The position numbers were made by a program, and so were the translations under genes. Of a stretch of 64,000 nt of DNA, positions 8,480 through 62,281 are shown in pieces. Below the pieces are notes generated by a model. The model did no database searches. It saw only the letters and a list, made by a program, of their open reading frames with translations, and was not told the origin of the DNA. Source of the stretch: Podarcis cretensis (taxonomy: Eukaryota); contig OX638164.1 in the NCBI GenBank assembly GCA_951804945.1, positions 22,878,001 through 22,942,000 on the forward strand, in the 5' to 3' direction. Numbering within the stretch: position 1 is the first letter of the stretch; each line of letters begins with the position of its first letter.

Positions 8480-9560
8480 CACTACCCAATTTGAAACCGC
8501 GCGTGGCTCAAAGGCGGCGGGGAACGAAGGAACATTGGACTGAGAACTGCGTGCATTCCAACCAGACAGCGCCGCGCAAAGATGGGGGCATAACAAAAGC
8601 TCCTTTTGCAAAGAGGGGGTGGAGTGGAGGATGTTGCAAAGAAAACGCAAGGACCTGGAAGCAGAGCGCGCGCCCCCTCCCCGCTCCAAATTCCGCGCGA
8701 TGCTGGCTGGCTGGCTGGCTTGCCAAATCGGGGGGAGCCTTGCGAGACAAGGCGATGGAGGGGTGCCAGAAGGTGGCCCCAAAGGTGCCCGCTCACCTGT
8801 CCGTACACCTTCATGGACTCCTGCTGCTGGGCGGCGGCGGCGCTCCGCTTGCTCCGCAGCATCTCGCCCGGCGTCGGCTGCCTGACTGTGCCATCGGGAC
8901 TGCTCGCCCGCAGCACCTCGAAGCCCCGGTCCTGAGCTCGGGATGTGAAAGCGGCGTGCAGCCGCAAGGTCTTGCCGGCGGACTCGGCCGGCCGGAGGCT
9001 GCAAGCGGATAACAGGAGGAGGAGGAGGAGGGCGAGACGCGGCGGCGGCATCGCCAACCGGGCGGCCGTTTCCCGGAGCGGAGAGCGCGGCTCCCCGGCG
9101 CGGCTTCTCCCTGTCGCCATGTTCGCTGCTTCCGCGCTCCGCCGGCTTGGCGAGCTGCAAAGTGGGGCGCCGCCGCCAGGACAGAATGTGCAATAGGATT
9201 GCAAAGCCGGGAAACCCGGTGGCGGCGGCGAGGGGGGGGGGGGGGTGGCGAGGGAGCAACAGCAGCGAGCAGATTCAGGCCAGCTGCAGGCAGCTCGGCT
9301 CCGGCGCGCGCCACGGGCCCGGGGCTGCACGCGCTGCTTCCCGGGGCATTGCAACCCTTCCTTGCCTTTTGCGCGGTGCGGGGCAAAGCAGCGAGCGAGC
9401 GCGCGCGTAGCGAAATTATTCGCTCGGGTGTTGTTGTTGTTTGTATTTGCAGCCTCTGGCTTGCACCAGCCGGCCACGGTGTGCGGGTGCAAGTCACGTG
9501 TCATCTCCCCACCCCCACAAAACGCACACACACGCATGCACGCTTTTCTCCGTAATCTTC
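8480..9560. promoter_or_regulatory. SORL1: CpG island covering the SORL1 promoter, exon 1 and start of intron 1
   Basis: Very high GC and CpG density compared with flanks; surrounds the first coding exon. Confidence 0.9.
8797..9120 (-). CDS. SORL1: Sortilin-related receptor (SorLA/LR11), coding exon 1 (108 codons: signal peptide, propeptide, furin site)
   Basis: MATGRSR...LALLLLLLLSACS...QDRGFEVL...LRSKRSAAAAQQQESMKVYGQ matches SORL1 hallmarks (QDRGF, RxKR|SA, KVYGQ). Strong Kozak gaacATGG; phase-0 donor CAG|GTGAGC at 8797/8796; position downstream of SC5D fits vertebrate synteny. Confidence 0.96.
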
Positions 9561-18828: not shown

Positions 18829-20658
18829 CAGAGTAACAGTTTGCATGACCCACTGAGGAAAATGATAACACAATAAATCAACGATTAATTGCACATTCCT
18901 TCAACATCCAATAAAAACTATTTAGCTTAATTAATTCCACAAAATGGATGACCTATATCCAGTGACACCAGCTTTTCAAAGTTGGATAGCAGAAGTGCCA
19001 ACTTGAATAAAATATTGGGAGGGGGGCAGGTAAGTCCCACCCTGCAGCATCGATCACATGATAAGCACATGAACACAATTTGAATGGCAATGCCACTCAA
19101 CTTTGAGTGGCCCAACCCCTTCAAATACTTTATGGGGGGTGGGAGAGGGACCTTGGCCCCTAGGATTTGGCTCCTATGTCTGAGAGTCATTTATACTTCC
19201 AGCCAGAGCAGTTTTTTTAGCTTGAACTCACCTGAACTCAGTTCTGGCACCTCTCTGGTAGGTGCCATTGCCATTCTAAGAGAATGAGGGAGGTGTTCAT
19301 GGTGAGTTCCAACACCTCTTTTTCCAGAAAAATGGCCCTGCCTCCAGCGCCCGCCCCGCCCCCATGATTCTTAATGCCCCCTGGTAATCCCACTTTTCAC
19401 CAGGGGGCACTACCACCCACTTTGGAGGTCAGAATGTCGACACGTTAGCCAGGGTTGCCATATCTTCAAGAGCAAAAAAGAGGGCAGCCCAAGCTGGGGA
19501 AATAGGCACCGGGGAGGGGGAGGCCTGCTGCCACACATCTCTTTCCTCAGCTCGGGCTGGCAGCAGCTACGGCATGCAGAGCAGCCCGAGCAGCTGCCAG
19601 CCTGAGCAGAGGCAGGGCCCCAGCTCCTACCTGATCTTCACTGCACTGGCCTTGCTCTGCTTCCGCTTCCGGGGCACAGTGCTCTCCCAAGCATGCACAT
19701 GCCCCCCTCCAATAAAACAAAACCCCAAACCCCTGACATTGCCTTTAAAATGTAAAAATCTGCCCAGAGGAGCATGTTATCCCCCACAAAGAGAACACAT
19801 ATACAGTACAGTTTTCTTGAATGTATGCCAACCCTAACGATAGCATTCCCTAGAGAAACACACACACACATATTTTCATCCAACGTATGCCAAAGTGATG
19901 ATTGGAACGCTCCTCTCCATGAGTGTCCATGTATACTCATGTGAGTGGTGGGGAATCACCCCCTCCCCATTGAACCATAAATGCCAGATATCCAGATTTC
20001 CCTTAAAAAAAATAAAAAGCAAGTTTCTATGTTTTTTGAACCTAAGGCATGAGGTCAAGGTACAGGTGGAGATGGGGAATTTCAGCTTCCTTCACTTCCT
20101 CAATTTTCTAATCTTAAGTTCATTTCTCCACATTAGTTTGTGATTAAAAAAAAAATTCTCATGGAAATCTGTGATGTATGAACACCCATTTTATGCAGTT
20201 TTGCCTCATATCCATGTTTCTGCAAGCTGTTTTCCTGAATACAATGCATATCTGTATGTTGCTTTCACAAACAGAAGCATTTTTAGGGGGGGGGCGACAC
20301 TTTTACCCCAGTATATGCATTCTTGTACATGTTACTAGGCTGAAGAAATGCACGAAAAAATTCAGAGAGTTTTGAAGGATGACTATTCTAGCAGTTGTCT
20401 TATTTTAGTTCTCTTATTGTTTTGCGAAGTGCAGATTAGGTTTCCATGCACTTTCCACATGCGGAAAGTTAAATTCAGTTCATGTGAAATAGCAAACCTA
20501 TTGTGCTTTTCGAAACAATACAGGAACGGAAACAAAACCATCCTCTGAAATTTGCACTTCAGTAAGTTTTGCAGTGCAGTTCTCTAGCAGAGAAATGAAT
20601 ACTGAAAGGCATCTACTGGGGTACAGCGTGCATTAAAATGAAGGTATTAGTGAAAATA

Positions 20659-21010
20659 GGAACACGGGTGGCGCTGTGGGTTAAACCACAGAGCCTAGGA
20701 CTTGCCAATCAGAAGGTCGGCGGTTCGAATCCCCGTGACGGGGTGAGCTCCCGTTGCTCGGTCCCTGCTCCTGCTAACCTAGCAGTGTGAAAGCACGTCA
20801 AAGTGCAAGTAGATAAATAGGTACCGCTCCGGTGGGAAGGTAAACGGCGTTTCCGTGCGTTGCTCTGGTTCTCCAGAAGCAGCTTAGTCATGCTGGCCAC
20901 ATGACCCGGAAGCTGTACGCCGGCTCCCTCAGCCAATAAAGCGAGATGAGCGCCGCAACCCCAGAGTCATCAGTGACTGGACCTAATGGTCAGGGGTCCT
21001 TTTACCTTTT
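20659..21010 (+). mobile_element. Sauria SINE, full length
   Basis: Highly similar to 49-397; perfect 14-bp TSD tattagtgaaaata (20645-20658 / 21011-21024). Confidence 0.93.
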
Positions 21011-21813
21011 TATTAGTGAAAATAACGTGCAAATGCATTATATAGGGGAAAACTGCTGTGTGAACATGCATACATAAGAGGAAATGCGGGGCATAAGTGG
21101 TGGCCAATGCAGGGCAAAGGAGGTGGTATAATGTACAGAGTGCTGTGAGAAATGTAGAATCATCGAGCTGATAGGGACTCCTGAGGGTCCAACCCCAAGC
21201 AACGCAAAAATATGTGCATTAGGAAACATTTGCACTAAATTTCCCCCTGCACTCCTGCCTTTGAGGGCTCCCCTTTGCAGATCAGCTAGCTCTGCCCAAC
21301 ACCTGAGAAGTGGCATCAAAGCCAGGCCTGCTTAGGCAACAGAAACACCTGTGATCGCTCCCTGTGGGCATTTAGTCACTTAACCTCCTGGGCAGCTCAG
21401 ATCATCCTGACACGCTGCAGTTCCTTAGTAGCTCAGCGCCGTTCGATTCTCAAGTCAGGGGCTGCTGTAGCTAATTAACGCTCCGTGCGCATGAGTGCCG
21501 TGGGTTATTTGGAGGGAGAGAAAATGGGATTCTGGGGAAAAAAAACAAGCAAGTTTATTATGGTCTGGGAGAGATGGAGCAGCTGCCAGGGCAAAGCAAC
21601 CTTTAAATCAGAATCACAAGGACGCTGCTATAGAAGGCTGCGGCGTGGGGGGGGGGAGGCAATGCTGCATAATTCACGCATCCCAGTTCCTGAGGAAATC
21701 CTGCCATGATTAAACATTTCTCACCTCCATTTATGAGACTCAATCGGCTGGTGGCAGATTCAGACGTGCAACAGTTAATTTAACTGAACAAAAGTTACAC
21801 GCGTCCTAATTGT

Positions 21814-23534
21814 TTTTTTGTTTTTTTTAATAATATTTATTAAAAATTTTCCAGAATAAAAAGGAAAGATAGCAAGCAAGAAAGAAAAAACAGATATGAT
21901 TTACACTTGGTTTCAGTGGCATCTTTCCCAGACTTCCCCCCCCCTCCCTCTTGTATTCCATTTCCCTTAAATTGATTCCACAGATTCTTACCCCAAATTT
22001 TAAAACCTTATTTGTAATTTTAAATAACCCATTTATTCCAAATTAATTTATCTTATTTATCTTAATGAACCATTTCTCCTTATATTTTATATAATTCCCT
22101 AAGATCGACCCCATTTCCCTTCCACGAATTCCCCTATTTTCAAACAACAGACATGAAAAAAGAAAAGAAAGAAATAATATATAATTTTACAGCCTTTGGA
22201 TTCCAAATCTTCCCCCTCCCCCATTCCCCGGTTCCAATCCCCAAAGTTCATCCATTGTCTACTGCCAGCCTGGTGTATCCACGTCTATATCTCAACTCCA
22301 CTTTGCCGTCTTTTGATAGCTTTTAATTTCAGAAAGTCCAATCTCGAAAAAACTCTCAGAAAAAGTCATTGTTCTTCCATCCAGACCTCTATGTTTAAGA
22401 GTCTAACTTAAATTCTATTTCTTGGTCCTTTTAAAGTCTGGATGTTCCAAATACTCCAGCTTCAAATTTGGTCCGGCTCTTATTCCTCAGGTTGCTTTTT
22501 CCTGTTCTGCTGCAGAAACATTCTAATTCAGAAACTTCTTGTTCTCCACAGAGGCTTTTGTTATTCAGGAACATAACTTGCGTCAAGTCCCTTCCTTTCT
22601 TCAATAGATAAATCCATTGTCTCCTTTAGTGTAGAAACCTCTGTAGACAAAATAATGCTTCGTTTTTGCAGCTTTCCCAAGAGATAACAGATCCTGCTCA
22701 AATTCATAGTATTTTTCCACTTGCTGCTACTGTTGCAATGTCCCAGCCTCCCTCTAGAGGGAATATGGTAACTTAATTTCTTTCAAAATCAGACCCAAAA
22801 GTCAAATAACTTGTTGCCTTTATTTCCAATAATTTATGTCCAAATTGTAACAAATCTAACCAGCAAAGCCATCGTAACAAAGTTCTCTTTTATTTTCCTG
22901 CTTTGACAGCTACTTTGACAGCTGTCAAAGTTTCTGTGTCTCTTCACCAGTCTCTCATAGCAGATCGTTCCCGGTTCCCCGGGGGGGGGGGGTTGCACTT
23001 TAGTTCAGCACAATTATTGTAATTTCCCTTCGTGAAGTTAAAAATTTTTTTCAGGTAAACAAGTTCATCTCTCGATCTTAGTTGTCAAATCCTTGCGTTG
23101 AGCCATCTACAACAGGGGGGGCGGACTTCCTTTTTGCACTCCCCCCGCTCGCTCCAAATTCAAAGATCAAATTTCCCTTTTAAGTCCAATCAATTTACTC
23201 ACGGGTTGTTCCTTTTAGTCCAAATCCGAAATTTTCAAAGAAGAAGTCGTTGCTCTCCGCCGAATGGCATGCGGCTTCGCTGGGCAGGGGAAGCATTGGA
23301 CTCACAGCACCACACCCCCCCCGTCACCCGCTCTGCAGCCTTTAAAAAGGCTCCTTCGCGGGTCGGGGGGCGCAAACGGTGCCCGCCGAGTCACCAAGTC
23401 CATGGGCATCTCCGCCCATGGTTTTTGAGGGTCCCCGCGTCGCCGGCACGGCAGGACCCGACCCCTACCCAGCCGACTCCCTCCGGAGCTCGGAGGGAGT
23501 CCGCCATTCGGCGATGGCGCCGACCCGGAAGTTC
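21814..23534 (-). mobile_element. Full-length non-autonomous polyadenylated retroelement, probably L1-derived or L1-mobilised
   Basis: 12-bp TSD cgtcctaattgt (21802-21813 / 23535-23546); AATAAA (21836-21841) plus A-rich tail; GC-rich 5' end beginning GAACTTCCGG...ATGGCGG; no long sense ORF. Confidence 0.8.
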
Positions 23535-24169
23535 CGTCCTAATTGTAAACGAAGCTTCTAAGCGATTTACAAAATAACGCAAAACATACGTTATAATTAT
23601 CTGTTAAAGGTTAAAAACAAGTTTTTTTTAAAAAATCAAAATACAATTACAATTAAGCTAAAATTACAAAACCAAACCCATAGCAGCTTTTGCGTGTTAG
23701 CGCAGGCAGTCTTGACTAAAGAATTCATTTTTTAATAGCAGAATTCGTCAAGGGTACCGTGAAGGTGGTTGCCTAATGTCAATAAGCAGGGAGTTACAGA
23801 GTTTAGATGCTGCCTATATAGTGACAGCCATGGCCCCTCATAGCTAAGCTCCCTTCTAGAAATACACAGTTTTCTAGGGATGCATTGCAATGATCAGTAC
23901 AGATCTCCATGTGATGTGGGGACAACCAAGGGCAGTGGGGCCTCCTTGGATCCCCTTTTGGGCAGAGTATCTTCTGGGCACATCACTGTGCCTCAGGGTG
24001 GGGACTGATGCCCCAAGGTCCCCATTTGTGCAAGTGGCCACCCGAGGATCCTGCTGCCCCTTATTTTAAGAGGAAGGCCCATTGAGGCTCAGGTTCGAGT
24101 TCTGGTGCATCTTATCTGGAGCATGCCTCAATGCTTGCATCCTCCTTCCAAGAACAGCTCAGCGTCACA

Positions 24170-25179: not shown

Positions 25180-25850
25180 TCTTCAAAAATTTTTTATTCA
25201 TTTTATAACACAAATAAAGAACACAAGCAAAAAAAACAAACAATACAAACAAATTCTTGTCATATAATTATTTTTCTAAACATTGTTAAGTACGCTTCCC
25301 CAGGTCCCACCTATCTGATTTTCATTTTACTTCATCTTTAGCAGTTTACATATATAATAGTTTTTAACCATCTTTTTTTAAAATCACTCTTAAAATAACT
25401 TCACTTTTTATCACTTTCAGATAATACTATTTTAAAATACACTATCTTCTACTTCTAACCCTACAGCCTATATCAACTTCCAAAGGTATTCAAAGCTTTA
25501 AATATTAACATATTTTTTTCAAATATTCCTTAAACTTCTTCCAGTGTCTCTTCTCTCTGGTCTCGGAGTCTCCCGGTCAGTTTGGCAAGTTCCATATAGT
25601 CCATCATCTTCATCTGCCATTCTTTGATAGTTGGTAAATCTTGTTTCTTCCAATTCTTCGCTAGCAATATTCTCGCAGCTGTTGTGGCATACAGAAAAAA
25701 AGTAACATCCTTTTTGTGGATTTCAGCCTCCACTATACCAAGTAAAAAGGCTTCTGGGTTTTTTAAAATGTGTGTTTCAACACTTTTTTCAATTCATTAT
25801 AAATCCTTTCCCAGAAGTCTTTTACCTTGGGGCACATCCAATTTTAAAGA
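25180..25850 (-). mobile_element. L1-clade LINE 3' fragment, degraded
   Basis: ORF remnant YATTAARILLAKNWKKQDLPTIKEWQMKMMDYMELA is homologous to the 46382-47155 ORF; AT-rich 3' UTR with AATAAA. Confidence 0.85.
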
Positions 25851-32162: not shown

Positions 32163-32529
32163 AAGGTAAAGGTAAAGGTACCCCTGCCCGTACGGGCCAG
32201 TCTTGACAGACTCTGGGGTTGTGCGCCCATCTCACTTAAGAGGCCAGGGGCCAGCGCTGTCCGGAGACACTTCCGGGTCACGTGGCCAGCGTGACATCGC
32301 TGCTCTGGCCAGAGCCAGAGCCAGAGCCGCACACGGAAACGCCGTTTACCTTCCCACTGGTAAGCGGTCCCTATTTATCTACTTGCACCCGGAGGTGCTT
32401 TCGAACTGCTAGGTTGGCAGGCGCTGGGACCGAGCAGCGGGAGCGCACCCCGCCGCAGGGATTTGAACCGCCAACCTTTCAATCGGCAAGTCCTAGGCGC
32501 TGAGGCTTTAACCCACAGCGCCACCTGCG
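32163..32529 (-). mobile_element. Sauria SINE, variant subfamily
   Basis: (aaaggt)n tail, TSD atccaattaatta; diagnostic 3' body shared with 50934-51296. Confidence 0.9.
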
Positions 32530-40149: not shown

Positions 40150-40503
40150 GGGTGGTGGGTGGCACTGTGGGTTAAACCACAGAGCCTAGCGCTTGCCGAT
40201 CAGAAGGTCAGCAGTTTGAATCCCTGCGACGGGGTGAGCTCCTGTTGCTTGGTCCCTGCTCCTGCCAACCTAGCAGTTCAAAAGCACGTCAAAGTGCAAG
40301 TAGAAAAATAGGTACCACTCTGGCGGGAAGGTAAATGGCGTTTCCATGCGCTGCTCTGGTTTGCCAGAAGCAGCTTAAGTCATGCTGGCCACATGACTCG
40401 GAAGCTGTATGCCGGCTCCCTCGGCCAAAAAAGCGAGATGAGTGCCGCAACCCCAGAGTCGTCCGTGACTGGACCTAATGGTCAGGGGACCCTTTACCTT
40501 TTT
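40150..40503 (+). mobile_element. Sauria SINE
   Basis: Same body as 49-397 and 20659-21010; ccctttaccttt tail. Confidence 0.9.
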
Positions 40504-42149
40504 ATTCTAGATATTGTGCTTTACAGCTTCCATTAGTCTTGACCAGAATGGTTGATAGCCAGAGATGATGGGAGTTGAAGTCTAAATATCTGGAGAGTAG
40601 CACATTGGCCACACCTGCTGTCATTATTTAAAATATTTTTTCTGCTTTAGACATTACTGTGTTAGTTTGTATCCTGCCCTTCCTCTAAGTACCTCAGGGC
40701 AATGTATCTTCACAACAACCCTGCGAGGTCAGTGGGTCAGGGGATAAAGGTTTGCCCAACTCCCGCCCCCAACCCCCCATGAGCCTAATTGCTGAGCAAC
40801 GCTGAACAGTAAATTTATTATAAAATGTTGTCTTTATATCTAATTAGGATGGGCCAAAGCTGCTGTTGTGAATGTTATAGAATTGACCAGATTCCAATTT
40901 ATTGCTTCTTAAACACCCTGTTTCCTGCCTGTCTACCCAACTCCATCTTGCTTGCAATAACAAGATTTTAAAAATCGTATTTACGTGTGGGACAGGACCA
41001 AAAAGGCAGCATTGTAGAATTGCAAATGGAAGTGTTTCCTTTAAAAAAAGGTGCTTGTGTGTGCCCAGATTTTTAAGTGAGCGTGGATGCTTTTTACACG
41101 TGCTAACAACATCACTCCCGGCGTAAAAATTTCCCGACCCTTTCAAGGAAATTAGTTACATTAAATAGATGATGTCAAAGCCGGGTCTGCAGCCTTGTTT
41201 ACAAAATGTACGTGCATGGCTGATGATGCCCCTTGCCCCCCAGTTCCCCGGCATGGTTTTGCATTACCGTTTCCAAAGCCCTTCCAGCGACTAGAGTGCC
41301 TAATAACAAAACAGTGGTGGATATTTATTACGCTTCCAGGTTTCTCATTTTCTCCATTTCAAAACAAAACAAAACATAACGTCCTGGAGAGTCTGCATTG
41401 CAGCAAGATGGTGATTTGCTGCCTAGGAGACTGTCTTAAGGACCGACAACCATTTATTTGCTGTGCCCTGCCAGCGACCTTGTGTCTTTATGGGCACCGC
41501 CTCTTTGTTAGACTCCCAGCGTCCTCCCCGCACGCGAATGAACTTGGATGGCTGTTTGCAGATTAACTCAGGATCAATAGTGGGGTCAAAGGGCGAGCAA
41601 GAATAAATAATCAATCTGGAGGGAATAAATTAAGGCCTTTCTCGGGTTATTCATGGACGGCCTTCATCTCTCCCAAGTACTCCTTAGGCCAATTAATCTC
41701 CTTCATTTAATTTACGCCTCCCAGCATCTAATAGCAACGAAGGTCGTTTCTTTTGAACCAGCCTGAAAATCGCCAGGTTTTTGCTGCTACTCACAAGCCA
41801 GTGGGCAATTTGGTACAGCCGCTTACAGCTCTACTTCTCTAGGGGCGAACAGGTATAATTCATCCTATCCTGTGCATGCAGAGATGTGTGAGCAGATGGT
41901 GACCTATAAAGCAAGGATAATGTGGGGTCCTACAGGTGGTGTTGGACTACAAATCCCATCATTCCTGATTGTCGCCCCTGCTGACTCCGGCTTGTGGGAG
42001 TTGTAGTCCCAAACATCCCCTTCCATAAGGCATTCCGGAGCCCTTCCAGCCAACCTGCAGCCAGGCGTACTACTACATCATCTGTTCATTTGTATGCCGC
42101 TCCTCCACAAAATTGTACCTGAAGTAAGTGGCGAAGCTGCATGCTCCGG

Positions 42150-46016: not shown

Positions 46017-47200
46017 TTTTTTTTTTATAAAATTGTTATTACATTTTCAATTTACAAAAAAAGAACAAACAAAAAAGAAGAAAAGGAAAAACAATCCAAC
46101 TTTCAAAATGCATTTTTACGTTGCTAACTGGACTTCCCCACATCTCCCTCACCCTGCATTCTTTACAATAAACATATCAGCAAATTATTACCTTGTTTCG
46201 TATCTTATTTATATCTTTCAAATTATTTTACTTCTAAATTTAAAGTACTTTTTGTCAATTATTTATACCTTAAAGTAATACATAAATTAACTTTAAATTT
46301 CAACTTTTTCTTACTTATAACTTAATCTTCTATTTTCCCAATCTAGTTGCAGGAGCTAGAGTTTCCAAATCGTGCAGATTCTTAACATTCATACAACTTA
46401 TAATGTTTTTGTAAATAGTCCTTAAATTTTTTCCAGTCCTCTTCCGTTGTTTCTTCTCCCAAATCTCGGATTCTGCCCGTCATTTCGGCCAGTTCCATAT
46501 AGTCCATCAACTGCGTCTGCCACTCTTCCAGCGTGGGAAGGTCTTGTATCTTCCAATATTTTGCAATGAGTATTCTTGCTGCTGTGGTTGCATACATAAA
46601 AAGAGTTCTATCCTTCTTTAACACCTTTTGGTCCACAATGCCCAGGAGGAAGGCCTCTGGTTTCTTAGGAAAGGTGTACCTAAACACCTTTTTTAACTCA
46701 TTATAGATCATTTCCCAGAAGGCCTTCACTTTTGGACAAGTCCACCAAAGGTGAAAGAATGTCCCTTCAGCCTCCTTACATTTCCAACATTTATTATCAG
46801 ACCGATGATATATTTTTGCAAGTTTGACTGGGGTCATGTACCACCTATATATCATTTTCATAATATTTTCCTTCAAGGCATTACATGCCGTGAATTTCAT
46901 TCCAGTGGTCCATAACCTTTCCCAGTCTTCTAACATAATGTTGTACCCAATATCCTGAGCCCATTTTATCATGGCTGATTTGACTATCTCATCCTGGGTG
47001 TTCCATTTAAGCAGCAAGTTATACATTCTCGAAAGTACCTTGGTCTTAGGTTCTAACAGTTCTGTCTCTAATTTCGATTTTTCCACCTGGAATCCTATTT
47101 TTTTGTCCGACTTAAAAACCTCTTGAATTTGAGCATAATGAAACCAGTCTTGCACCCTATTCTTTAATTTTTCAAAGCTCTGCAGCCTCCAGTTGTCTCC
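46017..47200 (-). mobile_element. L1-clade LINE, 5'-truncated, young; open ORF2 C-terminus (47200-46382)
   Basis: CWKC-x7-HLWWTC zinc-knuckle motif; poly(A) tail; perfect 16-bp TSD tcaattagcacttcct (46001-46016 / 47201-47216); frame stays open up to the truncation point. Confidence 0.93.
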
Positions 47201-50600: not shown

Positions 50601-50933
50601 CACTCCCCCCACAAAAAAAGAATCCTTGGAAGTGCAGTTTACCTCTCAAAGAACTACAATTCCCAGCATCCTTGGACAACAGTTCCCAGGATTATTGGGG
50701 GTGAGGAGGAGGTGCTTTAAATGTATGGTGTGGGCACAGCCTTTCTATTTTAGGAAAACCAGACCATAGGATGCAGAGCTCAACCTAAAATGGCCATTCT
50801 ATGTGACAGCTCTCAAAAGTGAGGAGAAGGCAACTAGATCAACTTCAGCAGTCTCACTGGGACAAGCCAAAAGTGGGCTATTCCGTTCTGGAATCGCTGC
50901 GGCTGTTCCATCTTGCAGGCATTTAAAAAGATA

Positions 50934-51296
50934 AGGTAAGGTAAAGGTACCCCTGCCCGTACGGGCCAGTCTTGACAGACTCTGGGGTTGTGCGCCCATC
51001 TCACTCTAGAGGCCAGGGGCCAGCGCTGTCCGGAGACACTTCCGGGTCACGTGGCCAGCGTGACATCGCTGCTCTGGCCAGAGCCAGAGCCGCACACGGA
51101 AACGCCGTTTACCTTCCCGCTGGTAAGCGGTCCCTATTTATCTACTTGCACCCAGAGGTGCTTTCGAGCTGCTAGGTTGGCAGGCGCTGGGACCGAGCAG
51201 CGGGAGCGCACCCCGCCGCAGGGATTCGAACCGCCGACCTTTCGATCGGCAAGTCCTAGGCGCTGAGGCTTTAACCCACAGCGCCACCTGCGTCCC
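50934..51296 (-). mobile_element. Sauria SINE, variant subfamily
   Basis: Nearly identical to 32163-32529; flanked by aaaaagata repeats. Confidence 0.9.
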
Positions 51297-55280: not shown

Positions 55281-55733
55281 CTATTTATTTTTAAAACTGC
55301 CTTCCTCTAGCACTCCCTCATCCCCACAGCCATTTTTAAAACTGCTCAATTTGCTTTCTTTTAGCTTTTTCAAATAATCATGGGGCCCTTTCCCTTCAAA
55401 AGAAGAAGGGTTTTTGTATGAGCCCCCAATTCTATCCCAGAGTGTAAAATACTGGCCATAGTTGTAATCAAAGAACAAATGGTGATCAGTGTGATGGGCG
55501 GCACCATTGATAATTTCCTTCAGTATGCCAGGAACATGATAGTCCCCGTCATGGATGGAGATTGTCCAGATATTGACGAAGACATAGAGGCCCAAATAGG
55601 TGACCTTGTGCAGGGGAAAAAGGAATGGGTAGATGTGATAAGGGACGCTTTGAAGGAAGCCATCCATGGGGTGAAAAGCATGGCTTGCAAATGGAGTTGG
55701 GATCTTCCACAGGTGATGGGGCTTGTGCAAACG
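55281..55733 (-). CDS. SC5D: Lathosterol oxidase / sterol C5-desaturase, last coding exon (453 nt including TAG)
   Basis: [22 protein letters not shown]...SIHDGD...[30 protein letters not shown] contains two His boxes; acceptor ttccacag|CGT at 55734/55733. Confidence 0.98.
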
Positions 55734-57178
55734 CTGTGGAAGAAGAGAGAGGAATTAGAACCTTAGAATAGAAACAAGAAAGAGCCCAGAACACTTTCAC
55801 TTTAATACAGCAACAGAAAGCATCACCTGTGGCAAGGAAAGACCATTCTGAGATGCCCTGGCAGAGAGGTGGAGGATTATTTGTGTGTGTGACTACTACA
55901 GGTATGTGAGAATCAAGCTAGGCTTTTATTTTATTGAAAAATAAGATGGCAAAGATCACAATTCTGCTACATGAACCCCTGGTCCGGCTACATTTAAAAC
56001 CTAGCTCACAGTCTTTAAAAAGCAAAGTGTGGAGAGTTGATGGGTGGAAAGAGATACAGAAAAGGGAAATGTAACTGTCAAATTGGACCACGCTTTCCAT
56101 AAGGAAGAATTAACGCATCTAAGGCTTTTTAGTTTAGAAAAAAGAGAGACAACTGCTATTAAGTTATTTGGTGAAAAGAGTGAAATCCATATATTACTGA
56201 GTGTCTGAAATACTTCCTTTTGTTGGGCTACATTAATTTCTTTCTCTGTGATATTCATGATTTATACATCTGTACTATGTCTGTCCTTTCAGCCACTATG
56301 GTCTGTCCTATGTTTGATTACACTTTAAAAAACATTTCTTTTAAAGAAAACGTTCAATTCTCTCATCATTTTTGCCACCCTTTTGGATAACTTTTCCAGC
56401 TCTACTATACTCCAATGCCTTGAGATCTGGCACCACAATAACGGTACCCCCTTAACAGTTGGAGAAAGGTAACTCCTTGGTTTTCTTTTCTTATTGCCAA
56501 TCTGCACCAACCTCGGGGCCGTACCATCCTTTGCACTTGATCCCATCAACAGTGGGCTGCTGGTCTAGTCTTTTAGTTCTCTGGCTTTTCCTGCAAGTTA
56601 AGCAAGTAGCCTCTAGGGCCAGATGCATATTCATAAGTTTCCTACCTCAAAGTATACATTTATCACACAGCTTCACACACATCTGCCTTGAATCCTATTA
56701 TTAGTGGTCTACAGTAAAGCAAGTTATGTAGACACTGAACCGAGAAATTAGAATCAAACAGCACAACTCAGAAAAGCTTAAGAAGCAGCGACATGCTACC
56801 TGGCTTACCCTACTGCTGCATATGACCACATAACTGATTTGCTGCAAAGGAAACAATGCTAGAGAAGAGCACAATGGATGCAAGTGTTTCCTATCTCCAA
56901 ACTGGCTGATCCTTGTAGGAACTCTAGAAAAGCCTTCATGGATCAGACTGAGGTACATCTACTCTAGCATTCTATTTGCACCAGCAGCCAGTCAGAAGCG
57001 AGGCATGAAACTGAGGGTCCTTCCCTGCCTTTTGTCTCCAGCATCTGGTAATGAGGGATATACTGCCTTGATACATGGAGAGTCCCTTCACTCCACCCTC
57101 ATCTGCACATGGAATGCATCCTCCAGATTGGGTGCACTGTTCTCTAAGCATGTCTTACTATTTAACACTTTGCCATAC

Positions 57179-57279
57179 CTTATACAAAAGCTTATGATGG
57201 AGAAATCGATGAATCCAGTAGATACACATATCAGTAAAAAAGAGGAAAGAGAGCATGCTGAGGATAACACCAAACCAAC
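57179..57279 (-). CDS. SC5D: SC5D third coding exon (101 nt)
   Basis: Manual translation (G)WFGVILSMLSFLFFTDMCIYWIHRFLHHKLLYK includes the first His box. Acceptor tttgtctag|GT, donor AAG|GTATGG; phases join the neighbouring exons. This frame is absent from the ORF track. Confidence 0.96.
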
Positions 57280-58249
57280 CTAGACAAAAAAAGAAAGGTG
57301 TGAGTTTCTTTTTTAAATAGACATTTAAGAATGTTTAGAATATTTCTGGATTTGTACAATATTGGATTATGAAAACAAAAAGTAGTTTTTATGAAATCCA
57401 TTTTGAAAGAAGTCTCCTTACTTGAGCCTTTGGCAACGCTGAATCTCAAGCAAACAGAGCTAATTAATACATTGGAAAGGATCTGAAGGCTAAAGAGATA
57501 AAACCTGAAGAGCAACTCCAGCCGGACAGTTTACCATGGCAAGGTGCTCAAACACGTACAAAGGTGCTTTAGAAACACATATTGACTAAGCCGAAGGCAC
57601 TGCTTTAGATGTTGCTGACCTACAACAGGAGCTCAGAACGTCTGGCCTGCAGAGCATTCTTTGCCTTCCAGGGGGTTCAACTTGGCCACTTCTTTGCTAA
57701 ACTGTTTCCCCATGTCAATCAGACAATGTCATCTGATATCACTTGTCAATCATCTGTGGTCAACTGAACTGTTGTACCCTTGCCACAGCAACTTCGGATG
57801 CTGATTGCTCTCTCCATGGCTAAAAGGCGAGCATAATAGATATTCTCAGACACACATAATGCTTTGCCTCACTCACACATGGCTGGCTCATAACCAGCCC
57901 TGTCCTCTTGTTAAGGCTGTTGCTAAGGGCACTCTGGGAGCTTCTTTCTCCTTCACTTTCTCCAGATGAGAAGTGCCTGATATGGGATTTCACTGGAAGC
58001 CTCATTACTTTGTAAGCAACTTTTCTCCCTACAATTTGCGCGCTCTCTCTGTGTGTGTCTCTGCCTTTTATATGGGGGTGAGTAATATGTGGGCTGAAAT
58101 GCTGTTGTAAAGCTGCAGTGGAAAAACTCCCCATCCCAAGGAGGTTGCTGAGTGATCTGCCCAGGTGCCCAGAAGATGAGCTGAGTCAGAGCTGAGAAAC
58201 AAACCTGAGCAATACTTCCCTTGTGTGGAGTAAGCTATTTTCTTCTGTT

Positions 58250-58500
58250 CCAGATTGGAGGACACAAACTAACTGATCCAATTTATAAGAAAGGAGATTC
58301 TGACTAAACAATGGGGTGGGGGGGATTCTGATAAGTGCTGTTTCACAGTGGAACAGACTCCCTCAGAAAAGACTCTCCATCCTTGGAGGTTTCTAAGCAG
58401 AGGTTGGATGGCCATCTGTCTGGGATGTTTCAGCTGTGATTCCTGCATTGTGGTGGGTGCGCTGGACTAGATGACCCTTCTGTCTCTACAAATCCCATGA
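58250..58500 (+). mobile_element. CR1 LINE 3' end fragment (intronic)
   Basis: Same motifs as 42310-43198 (gaaaggagattc...ccttggaggtttctaagcagaggttggatggccatctgtc...ggactagatgacc). Confidence 0.75.
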
Positions 58501-59492
58501 GTTCCTCCACGATAATGGCCCTCATTATTCTCCATAAAGTAGGGTTAGGTGCATTTTCTTCCATGCATGTTTAAGTGTAAGGGAAGCCCAGAAAAGCTGC
58601 ACATCCTGGAAGAATCCTGTTGGGGAAGGAAGCAGCGGCAGCCCACCTCACAGCACTGGCTGGAGAAGATCTCCTAATAATTATACCCTTATTACCTGCA
58701 TGGCAGGTGAGCAAGATTCAGTAGTGGCATAAATATCCCATGACAGACTATGGAGATAGTTGCCCATCTGGTGCTTCAAAGTAAATAGCAGGGTGTTTTT
58801 TGCTCTCTGCGCTGAAGTGGTCAGTGTGAAGGCAGTGCTGAAATGAGGGGTGTGCAGTATAGCCTGAGACTGAGGCGGGTGTGCAACTGAAAAGCTAGCT
58901 CAGGGACTGGATGGCCACCTCTCAGATATTCTTCAGCTGCAATTTCTGCGTTGCAGGGGTTGGACTAGATGGCCCTTGGGGGTCCCTTCAAATTATACAT
59001 TCCTGTGATTCTACTGTCCTTGCCAGCATCTGTTCAAGTTGTGGAAGGAATTTGAAGGAGAGAAACAGCAGGTGGGGTTTTGCACTCTATTTTTTCCTGC
59101 TTTTGCACACTCAACCCCTTCCCTCCCCAAAACAAGGACAATGGGGAAATATCAGAGCTCAGTGGTAGCGCATGCAGAAGGCCCCAGCGTCTCTAGGTAG
59201 TGCTGGGAGAGACACCTGCCTGAAACCCTGGAATGCTGCTGCCAGTCTGTGCACACAATACTGAGCTAGATGGACTAATGATCTGACTCCCTTTGTTTCT
59301 AGTGCTTGGGCTTTAATATGCATGTCATATGTAGCAAGGTCCCATGAGAAGAAATAAATAAGAGGCCATCCTATGTACAACAAATGGTGGCTAGAAGAAA
59401 TGAGAAACAAGTTACATAAAGTGGACTCTTGAGATAAGGAAAGGACAGAGACTTTGACCCGATAAAGAGGACATGCCAAGCAGTTTCCTTAC

Positions 59493-59625
59493 CATAAGGA
59501 GAGTCATCAATGTTATCATAGAGTTTGCTGTAGCCTCTGACTTCAGCAAAGAAGATGGCAACCGTGGGGATACTGATCCATGGCATTGATTTGAGGGTGT
59601 ATTTGATTTCACGCTGCACTTGATT
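59493..59625 (-). CDS. SC5D: SC5D second coding exon (133 nt)
   Basis: NQVQREIKYTLKSMPWISIPTVAIFFAEVRGYSKLYDNIDDSPY(G); acceptor gtgttcag|AAT, donor G|GTAAGG. Confidence 0.97.
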
Positions 59626-60097
59626 CTGAACACAGGAGAAGACACTTTGTATAAAATAATATCCTGTACATTTACAGCATTTTTGAAAGTTTAGCACAAA
59701 TATTATCTCAGTAGTCCTTTTAAGGCAGAGACATATTGTTATTTGCATACTGCAGGTGAGACGCTGAAGCAAAGAGAGGATTGTCTAATGTCACATGACA
59801 AAATGACATTTGAATCTGAGATTTCCTAGCTTAGTTTTTGCCAGTACAGTACGCTGCTTTGAGAAGCGTGCATGTTTTAAAAACGTAAGTATCTATTCTT
59901 CCGCAAAGCAGAAAGATAAACAGGTCATGTTTCTTTGTGAAAAACCTTGTTAAAAGGACTCATCTCAGACAGATGAGGTTTACTAGACCTGGTAAGGAAA
60001 GGCAAAACCTACTCCCAATCAGGTAACAATGCTTGTGGCCGAGCTAGCTGTGAGATTCCTAGGACCCCGCCCCTTACTGTTGCCTGCATTCTGCTTT

Positions 60098-60238
60098 AGA
60101 GCAGGCATAGGCAAACTCGGCCTTCCAGATGCTTTGGGACTACAATTCCCATCATCCCCGACCACTGGTCCTGTTAGATAGGGATGATGGGAGTTGTAGT
60201 CCCAAAACATCTGGAGGGCCGAGTTTGCCTATGCCTGC
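60098..60238. mobile_element. Small palindromic MITE, well preserved
   Basis: gcaggcataggcaaactcggcc...ggccgagtttgcctatgcctgc inverted arms flanked by duplicated ctttagag-like sequence. Confidence 0.8.
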
Positions 60239-60360
60239 TTTAGAGTTACTACCCTGGGGATCTATACTTATGGCAAAATAGCTGCAAGGCTCTGCTTGCT
60301 TCCTTTCCCCCACAAAACTACTTTAACCTCACCCAAAGAGCTTTCCTTTACTAGAAGAGC

Positions 60361-60747
60361 TACCATATTTTTCGCCCTATAGGACGCACTTTTTCCCCTC
60401 CAAAAATGAAGGGGAAATGTGTGTGCGTCCTATGGGGCGAATGCAGGCTTCAGGACTTCGCGCCGGTCTCCCAAGGGTTGCGCAGAGCTGCCTGCATTCC
60501 TGGGCTTCGCGCAGCTCTGCGCAACCCTAGGGAGCCCGGCGCGAAGTTGCGCCGGTCTCCTGAGGGTTGCGCAGAGCTGCCTGCAGTCCCGGGCTTTGCG
60601 CAGCTCTGCGCAATCCTAGGGAGCCCGGCGCGCAAGCCTGGGGAGACCGGCGCGCCAGCCCCGCGCCTGGGGGGCGGAAATAAATTTTTTTCTTTATTTC
60701 CCCCCGAAAAAAAACTAGGTGTGCCCTATGGGGCGAAAAATACGGTA
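60361..60747. mobile_element. Tc2-like MITE with tandem hairpin core
   Basis: Termini nearly identical to 3020-3467; TA flanks; core of two units of about 90 bp. Confidence 0.85.
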
Positions 60748-60855
60748 AATCCCAAGGTTCAAACTCCAGTATCTCTTAATTAAGGAGGATACCACATATC
60801 AAAGCAAGTGAAAGACACCTGCAAGAGATTTAGAGAGCTGCTGCCAGTGACTCAC

Positions 60856-61065
60856 CTCCAAATACTGAGGATGTTTCTTTAGAGAGTGATCAAATATGAA
60901 GTAATAGCTGAAACTGCCAATCAGCAAATAAAGAACAAGAGCACCCACATTTGTTATGACAATAAGGCTAATAAACTGTCGAAAAGGGTTATCTTCTGGC
61001 CATGCTGCTGGATAAACATAAGGCGTCAAAACGGAGTCATCTGCATATGCCAGGACAAGATCCAT
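60856..61065 (-). CDS. SC5D: SC5D first coding exon (210 coding nt; exon begins at 61073)
   Basis: MDLVLAYADDSVLTPYVYPAAWPEDNPFRQ...FDHSLKKHPQYLE; acceptor ttttatgcag|GTACAACAATG, donor GAG|GTGAGT. The four exons total 897 nt, or 298 aa plus stop. Confidence 0.97.
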
Positions 61066-62281
61066 TGTTGTACCTGCATAAAATTGCCATGAATTAATGG
61101 AAGGGGATACATCAAACCTCAGTGAAGACACAAGAATGGTAACCTTGACAGGTAGGCTGTTCTAAAAATAGGCTACAATGCTGTGCAAATGAGTTCCCAA
61201 ATGTTTAGTGAACTAACAATATACAAATAATCTAACAGAATGCCAGCATGGCTAATGAGCAGAGTCAATGAAGCAAAAAAGCTTTACTTGAAAAGTCTTA
61301 TTCAAATAAAAATAATAAAGAACACATAATGTGGCAAAACAAGCATTAGTTAATGGGTGATACAAGTGGGGGGAAATTTGAAGAGCTTATTGGTAAGACA
61401 AACTTTTACATAGTTTTTAGATACATCGGAAGTAGGAAACCACACGGAGACATGGAAAAAAGAGGCTAGAAAAGCTGTACTAATTCCTCATTTTGGCCTT
61501 CACTCTGGAAGGTATCCTACCAACTTTCGGCACTCTTAATAAACTATAGCTCCCATAATTATTTGGGGGAAAAGACAGCTATGACTGTTTGAAGCAGGAT
61601 TCCTCAAACTCAGCCCTCCATGTTTTTGGCCTACAACTCCCATGATCCCTAGCTAGCAGGACCACTGGTCAGGGATGATGGGAACTCTAGTCTCAAAACA
61701 TCTGGAAGGCTGAATTTGAGGACACCTGGGAAGTGACTTTATATTGTGATGCCCGTGTGGTGCAGTGGTTAGTGTCAGACTAGGATCTGAAATCACCCAT
61801 GAGACATCTGAAGGCAGCCCTGTTTAGGGAAGTTTTTAATGACTGGTGTTTTAATGTATTTTTAATCTTTTGTTGGAAGCCATCCAGAGTGGCTGGGAAA
61901 ACCCAGCCAGATGGGTGGGGTATGAATAAATAAATAAATAAATAAATAAATAAATTATTATCATCATCATCAGGAGGGACGTTGGGTCAGCCACACACTC
62001 TCAGCCTAACCTAACCCCACAGGGCTGTTGCGAGGAGAAAATGGGGGGAAACATACATGCAACCTTGGGCTTCTCGGAGAAAAAGGTGGGATATATATAT
62101 GGAACAAATAACTAAAGCATGTTTTAAATGTATGGCCTGAGAAAAGGCAGTTTTGAGGACAAGCTACAGAACCTGCCAATTTGTTCCCGCTGTTTCAAAA
62201 AGAGCTCCTACAATTAAAAAGTCACCATGACGCCCACGCAGACTGAATTTTAAGCCCGGCAAGTAGCTGCATCCTACTTAC

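Follow-up and report, generated by a model that had tools for sequence, protein, structure and literature searches.

A recently inserted, internally deleted half-L1 with a decayed ORF1 in the lizard Podarcis cretensis

Main finding

The stretch of Podarcis cretensis DNA analysed here (64,000 nucleotides, contig OX638164.1, positions 22,878,001 to 22,942,000; called the window below) very probably carries a recent insertion of a multicopy, internally deleted half-L1, whose ORF1 has decayed to 48 codons and which is likely to be transcribed from its own promoter and copied in trans by the proteins of intact L1 elements. The insertion is real and recent, and is one copy of a multicopy family. Judged by its alignments, the element is an internally deleted L1, composed of a 5'UTR, a decayed ORF1, the tail of ORF2 and a 3'UTR.

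The insertion and its surroundings

The element occupies window positions 21814-23534 on the minus strand, running from 23534 to 21814. It is flanked by two identical 12-bp target-site duplications (TSDs), the 3' copy at 21802..21813 and the 5' copy at 23535..23546 (both minus strand), at the target site TTT|ACAA. Its AATAAA and A-rich tail were read directly from the sequence at 21814..21841 (minus strand, AATAAA at 21841-21836), and the other family copies displayed have the same end. The first 330 nt form a CpG island with a GC content of 63% and a CpG observed/expected ratio of 0.95. A preliminary description of this DNA had reported a perfect 12-bp TSD, AATAAA plus an A-tail, an insertion site of this kind and a CpG-rich 5' end, and all of them are present at these ends.

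We found the orthologous site empty, with a single copy of the TSD, in three related organisms (B, C and J), each bridged by one contig; in organism J the contig joins 21801 to 23535 with 12 letters matching either side. Contigs from two samples of organism A cross from the flank into the element. Those of organism E end on either side of the site without bridging it, the flanks are barely covered in organism D, and the contigs of family copies in one run, which we guess to be RNA, are uninformative on this locus. Since three related organisms lack the insertion, the element at this locus was inserted after the split from these close relatives. The empty alleles that the preliminary description proposed to look for thus exist, and its view of the element as young holds for the insertion, though not for the lineage behind it, which is old and layered.

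The element lies between two genes. One is a fatty-acid-hydroxylase-family gene with exons at window 55281-61161 (minus strand; Pfam PF04116), which we take to be SC5D-like; the other is represented by what is presumably a first exon, resembling SORL1, at about 8800-9300 on the minus strand. The element is about 12.5 kb upstream of the latter exon and on the same strand. The window also holds two 5'-truncated L1 fragments (46382-47200 and 25514-25840), the first from a young L1 family with an open frame of 1,246-1,248 aa in 9 of 142 scored matches. Dispersed repeats of ~350 bp and another repeat fragment are found at 47-398, 20657-21009, 40157-40506, 32163-32529, 50933-51292 and 1081-1767; we take the former to be Sauria-SINE-like and one fragment to be BovB/RTE-like.

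Size and age structure of the family

We searched the 1.5-Gb assembly of 51 contigs from the same genome with the element; L-numbers below denote fetched loci. The best 40 scored of 3,437 candidates are all 95-100% identical to the element and nearly full length. Both ends are common to all 30 fetched copies, and 29 of the 30 have their own TSD of 12-20 bp, with a mean of 16.5 bp (25 of 30 copies scored). The copies with common ends and different TSDs that the preliminary description had suggested counting are hence there in number, and the element is not a single copy. At non-CpG sites the copies differ from their majority sequence by 1.3% on average, a value biased low because it was taken from the 30 best-scoring matches. 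Allowing up to one mismatch, the pattern of the 5' end has 930 genome matches and that of the 3' end of the youngest form has 449, with 0 for the reversed control in both cases, while an internal 28-nt motif, common to this branch (branch A/C) and its sister family B, has 2,400 (control 0). The family is roughly thousand-copy and young at its tip.

The subfamilies are 99, 92, 88, 85 and 73% identical to the element, several of them resting on one or two copies. Twenty loci chosen for a 5' match without a listed 3' match are mostly older full-length subfamilies at 88-94% with TSDs, and L123 is a full-length relative at 73%, also with a TSD. The same internally deleted structure recurs across the subfamilies and both ends are common to the copies, in agreement with the earlier view that this is not an ordinary 5'-truncated L1. 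When the first 30 copies anchored at the 3' end were inspected, 27 reached the locus edge, one had both ends with an internal deletion and two were 5'-truncated; the short length of the element may by itself account for the scarcity of 5'-truncated copies.

Two loci are of separate interest. L180:329-743 is a copy of only the 5' 450 nt, apparently between duplicated sites, and is possibly a 3'-truncated retrotransposed form. In L074 (G000:C4:39288149-39297648) an L1 with an open ORF2 of 1,253 aa lies in the opposite orientation inside a 98-100% family copy, with a 16-bp duplication, and therefore L1 was active after this subfamily of the element spread.

A family of this size could already be catalogued in Dfam, Repbase or the supplement of a genome paper under the label L1 or Unknown, since automated repeat finders would be expected to recover hundreds to thousands of near-identical copies. 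Against this, no lizard half-L1 appeared among the literature titles and abstract beginnings searched. We consider an existing entry a real possibility, with the balance leaning somewhat against it.

L1 ancestry of the two ends

The head of the element (23085..23534, minus strand) is an L1-type 5'UTR within the CpG island and is likely to hold an internal Pol II promoter. Its BLASTN identity to the 5'UTRs of full-length L1s of this genome is 66-72%, the matching stretch being element bases 7-453. The match comes from a second L1 lineage, found via a neighbour in L062, and the start of the element fits the lizard clade-1 L1 consensus in the available part of Boissinot and Sookdeo 2016 (PMC5381506). 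The distal 5'UTR (22731..23084, minus strand), where the 28-nt motif common to branch A/C and family B lies at 22929-22902, aligns to L1 weakly and unevenly, with z-scores of 1.5-4.6 that are no better than those of other-lineage controls in two of three cases.

At the other end, local alignment to second-lineage L1/HAL1 3' ends identifies 21842..22268 (minus strand) as a degenerate end of L1 ORF2 followed by an L1 3'UTR. The z-scores against three 3' ends of this lineage are 5.2-8.2, and none of 200 shuffles reaches the score; the controls, four L1s of the first (other) lineage, give 0.3-2.2. The segment upstream, 22269..22560 (minus strand), has weak collinear profile matches in shifted frames and appears to be the dead remainder of a shortened ORF1, with frameshifts and stops, joined to the ORF2 tail at a deletion junction near 22269. 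The preliminary description had proposed a non-autonomous L1 derivative still with its promoter end but without ORF2 and most of ORF1. Aligning both ends to full-length lizard L1s, as it had suggested, supports this origin, as does the ORF remnant; its complete loss of ORF2 is nearly right, except that the degenerate ORF2 end is retained before the 3'UTR.

The first L1 lineage, with an ORF2 of 1,242-1,264 aa, has no useful match to the element, and TBLASTN of its proteins against the family majority sequence gave only noise among the matches listed. Intact two-ORF L1s of the related second lineage are present in the genome (L245, L246, L250 and 7 of the 8 loci L260-L267), and the parent type is an L1-type element with an endonuclease-bearing ORF2. 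No autonomous L1 exceeds about 73% identity to the element in its 5'-most 450 nt, and no partner L1 with a near-identical 3' end was found among about 60 fetched L1 loci. One full-length L1, at L080, has its 5' part inverted relative to the rest inside one TSD, i.e. of the twin-priming type.

Two other classes were considered for the element and rejected. An autonomous L1 does not fit a longest sense ATG frame of 103 aa among 30 copies, most having about 50 aa. A SINE with a small-RNA-derived head does not fit either, as there is no tRNA and no Rfam match at gathering level, and the head is an L1 5'UTR.

The 3' part carries the motif GGAAGTC at 21937-21931 on the minus strand. Of 66 related 3' ends, 60 have the form GGARGTY, against 11 expected from shuffles, the rows not being independent. 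In L1 lineages that otherwise cannot be aligned it lies 95-245 nt ahead of the tail, and it is the reverse complement of the first bases of the elements; the section on lizard L1 in PMC5381506 has no mention of such a 3'UTR motif in the part available. In folding predictions the 5' end pairs with the 3'UTR GGARGTC motif with a probability of 0.76 in one B copy, 0.29 in A85 and 0.11 in C, and no such pairing is predicted in the folded copies of A99 and E. Pairing of this kind as a general feature is not supported by these models.

Decay of ORF1

A 48-codon ORF lies at 22561..22707 (minus strand); it starts at a formerly internal ATG and appears to be a remnant of the ORF1 coiled-coil region; the protein profile of sister family B matches it with an E-value of 2e-4 among 36 frames. 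The ancestral start codon position, 22728..22730 (minus strand), is lost in this copy, whereas an older A85 copy has an ATG there that reads into the core without a frameshift. Older subfamilies (two A88 copies and the A85 translation) share a stop at 22489-22487. A85, the oldest A subfamily, retains the ancestral ATG and has frames of 55 or 81 aa in its two copies; the younger A subfamilies have lost the ancestral frame and start at the internal ATG, with 47-48 aa; in subfamily C3 (9 of 70 loci) the core is preceded by a stop and by no ATG, and C3 was nevertheless amplified. This series indicates that the ORF1 frame decayed in the master elements during continued amplification.

The element has two further sense ATG frames, of 50 and 47 aa, and several ATGs upstream of the 48-aa ORF. 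The ORF that the preliminary description located at 22707-22561 is hence real without being the only sense ORF. Its label "non-coding" has to be qualified, since the subfamilies have preserved the 48-aa ORF as a remnant of ORF1. The ORF1 remnants that it proposed to search for are visible in the sister-family profile match and in the weak shifted-frame matches downstream. Pfam gave no match on 11 frames of the element. PF02994, the Pfam model of L1 ORF1, has no match across the genome either, which is uninformative because the ORF1s of this genome are not recognised by that model.

Sister family B and the separately formed families D and E

Family B is a 1.83-kb relative, whose copy at locus L179 carries a 189-aa ORF. 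All 150 scored matches belong to it, so that it has at least 150 copies, in subfamilies that are 80-97% alike. On the 5'UTR tree A and C form a clade with support 99/99, and A, B and C one with 97/97. Inside a young family-A copy sits a family-B element flanked by a TSD of its own (L179:5400-7226), and therefore A and B were active in the same recent period. We examined 70 motif-anchored loci, the first 30 being consecutive matches and the other 40 chosen by motif variant, and found an ORF of at least 170 aa in 29 of 41 B copies (one of these counts, L283, is possibly an out-of-frame artefact) and in none of 29 A/C copies.

Of 21 subfamily pairs in family B, which are not independent, 20 have a dN/dS of 0.25-0.63 and the remaining one has 0.86; in simulations, a neutrally evolving frame stays open at 20% divergence in at most 0.7% of cases. 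On these substitution patterns, the ~190-aa ORF1-derived frame of family B appears to be under purifying selection. Seven full-length homologues of the B protein (176-202 aa, 39-60% identity) were obtained from other runs. The B protein profile matches the second-lineage ORF1 profile with an E-value of 0.0024, collinearly from the N-terminal region to the end, and with 3e-4 over 48 coiled-coil columns, versus 0.74 for first-lineage ORF1; the hhalign probability is 12-40% (E 3e-4 to 2e-3). The derivation of the B frame from ORF1 is thus of modest statistical strength and rests partly on position. Pfam has no match for the B protein, and none of its L1 ORF1 families matches even the two genuine ORF1s scanned; the ESM Atlas gave a best score of 0.79 for the B protein and no lead.

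Two more half-L1 families were observed. Family D is 2.45 kb long with a 276-aa ORF1 fused to the end of ORF2 (L116 and L118), and family E is 1.6 kb long with a 115-aa frame covering only the coiled coil (L119, one copy seen). Both are placed among other L1 subfamilies on the 5'UTR tree, and hence arose separately from A/B/C. By these placements, half-L1s appear to have at least three separate origins within this genome. The junction between ORF1 and the ORF2 tail in family D is at almost the same two places as in A/B/C (window 22276-22269), and the coding frames of the two end in a similar motif. These near-identical junctions could reflect either a recurrent junction or a later exchange of parts.

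A conserved core within the remnant

A block of 101 nt (22683-22583), in the frame of the 48 codons, is far more conserved than its surroundings. Between A and C its 30 core codons differ by ~0.20-0.25 per synonymous site, close to the 0.21-0.25 of the whole element, and by 0.07-0.10 per non-synonymous site; between A99 and A85 the core has one non-synonymous change in 69.5 sites versus 0.127 overall. Near-background synonymous divergence together with less than half the non-synonymous divergence suggests a selected peptide encoded by the core, for a block picked post hoc and with small counts. RNA folding of the block gives z-scores of -0.4 to +0.5, i.e. no special structure.

Such selection would be expected if the 48-aa ORF were a minimal coiled-coil hook, made in cis and co-assembling with L1 ORF1p so that the RNA is drawn into L1 particles, which would make this the smallest coding HAL1. 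An ATG-led frame of 47-81 aa covers the core in all A subfamilies examined, non-synonymous divergence in the core is below background in both comparisons, and the independently made family E likewise retains only the coiled-coil part. A complex of the peptide with two ORF1 coiled-coil chains is predicted weakly, with a score of 0.35 against 0.00 for the best of three controls, a contact agreement of at least 92% and a partner pLDDT of at least 58. Among solved pairs 51 of 78 reached the mark for this score, and among mismatched pairs 2 of 108; it was reached at 0.60 or under, however, by only 5 of the 78 solved pairs and by all 4 passing mismatches. The controls were unrelated proteins not selected as coiled coils, and the predicted complex may show likeness only, given that peptide and partner coiled coil are homologous. 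Amplification of the start-less C3 also argues against a hook, as do the upstream ATGs and the choice of the block after its conservation had been seen, with synonymous divergence being low within A as well. We regard the hook as unlikely. We are equally doubtful of its wider form, in which this one lizard genome would hold a reduction series from a 276-aa ORF1 through a selected 190-aa frame and stubs of 115 and 48 aa to start-less elements, the coiled coil acting as a cis hook to the ORF1p trimers of intact L1s until RNA-level signals replace it.

Proposed origin and mobilisation

The reading we prefer is an internally deleted L1 whose copying proteins all likely come from intact L1s. An old L1 would have suffered a deletion between the end of ORF1 and the last ~45 codons of ORF2. 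ORF1 would then have been cut to ~190 aa, a frame presumably retained by purifying selection in branch B and truncated stepwise in branch A/C while the element went on amplifying. Established L1 biology suggests the remaining steps: Pol II would transcribe the element from the retained internal L1 promoter, with polyadenylation at AATAAA; L1 ORF2p would bind the poly(A) tail of the RNA; and insertion into T-rich|A-rich sites by target-primed reverse transcription would give TSDs of about 16 bp. Full ORF1p would be supplied in trans, as the available text of PMC11260458 describes for SVA.

A poly(A) tail, a TSD and a CpG-rich start would also be seen in a processed pseudogene derived from a host mRNA or non-coding RNA, and the preliminary description named a processed pseudogene as a competing explanation; it is extremely improbable, as both ends and the ORF remnant are L1-derived, successive subfamilies have their own diagnostic changes, and tRNA and gathering-level Rfam matches are absent. 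Just as improbable is a one-off internally deleted L1 copy multiplied by duplication at the DNA level: single-copy internal deletions do occur (L154 and L175), but 29 of 30 copies have different flanks and TSDs, and the same structure is found across the 73-99% subfamilies.

Significance

The success of half-L1s is thought to be due to their own ORF1p coating their own RNA. Here one lineage went on amplifying as it lost ORF1 step by step, and its sister retains ORF1 under selection, which makes the need for ORF1p in cis testable with natural variants. The data extend half-L1 elements to a lizard, in whose genome they arose separately at least three times. With about 2,400 copies carrying a CpG-island promoter-like head, and with an insertion after the split from relatives, the family is a source of lineage markers and of possible regulatory change. 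If the coiled-coil series were true, the L1 clade would have its first ORF-less bipartite family, and the series would map in nature how little is required to hijack L1; if the hook is wrong, a well-defined new repeat family is still left.

Comparison with known elements

As far as the consulted parts of these papers describe them, HAL1s are ORF1-coding elements born repeatedly in mammals (PMC5753468, PMC2241872, PMC4859970, PMC3342881). The element here shares with them, e.g. with rat RNHAL1 (PMC2241872, PMC5753468, PMC5786205; Bao and Jurka 2010 via citing papers), the L1 5'UTR, an ORF1-derived region and a 3' end with ORF2 deleted, as well as the poly(A) tail, TSDs, multicopy state and repeated independent origins. 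ORF2 is lost as in HAL1, both ends aligning to one L1 lineage with only a degenerate ORF2 end left. In contrast to HAL1, which encodes ORF1p, the element has 48 codons and no intact frame over the RNA-binding region, and none of the 29 A/C copies reaches 170 aa. Family D has an intact ORF1 as HAL1 does, and family B has one in part (190 aa). The spread of C3 in the absence of an ATG-led frame speaks, indirectly, against a requirement for its own ORF1p in cis. HAL1s are mammalian while this element is from a lizard, and its lineage is long-lived, ~70% like current L1s, whereas RNHAL1 is 98% like the active rat L1. The element would work like a HAL1 that no longer supplies its own ORF1p, and on its sequence it falls outside HAL1 in the strict sense.

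SVA combines Alu, VNTR and retroviral parts, while the element here appears wholly L1-derived. The two may be alike in mode, a long polyadenylated Pol II RNA being mobilised in trans; in the available text of PMC11260458, SVA is mobilised best with ORF1p and ORF2p both, and a HAL1-like reporter requires functional ORF1p. With lizard clade-1 L1s, for which PMC5381506 gives the 5' consensus, the element shares, in the part available, the 5' terminal consensus, a long CpG-rich 5'UTR and AATAAA plus poly(A), and it differs in having no ORF2 and no full ORF1. The passages of that paper searched make no mention of non-autonomous derivatives, in either spelling.

Kojima 2018 (PMC5786205), in the passages available, divides bipartite non-autonomous LINEs into those with ORF1 (HeT-A, HAL1 and Ag-Sponge) and those without any ORF, for which it gives RTE, Ingi, Vingi and R2 as the only sources. 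The element resembles the ORF-absent group (RIME, NARTc, Bov-A, and the Vingi and R2 derivatives) in its internal deletion with a 5' and a 3' part left and in the Pol II transcription assumed for it; it may also resemble it, most clearly in C3, in offering no usable protein, although the 48-aa remnant has fewer amino-acid changes than background. It differs in being L1-derived and 1.7 kb long, and in a gradual decay of its ORF rather than a single deletion. Placing it there would extend the ORF-absent class to the L1 clade, which would set it apart from the description in the available text of Kojima 2018.
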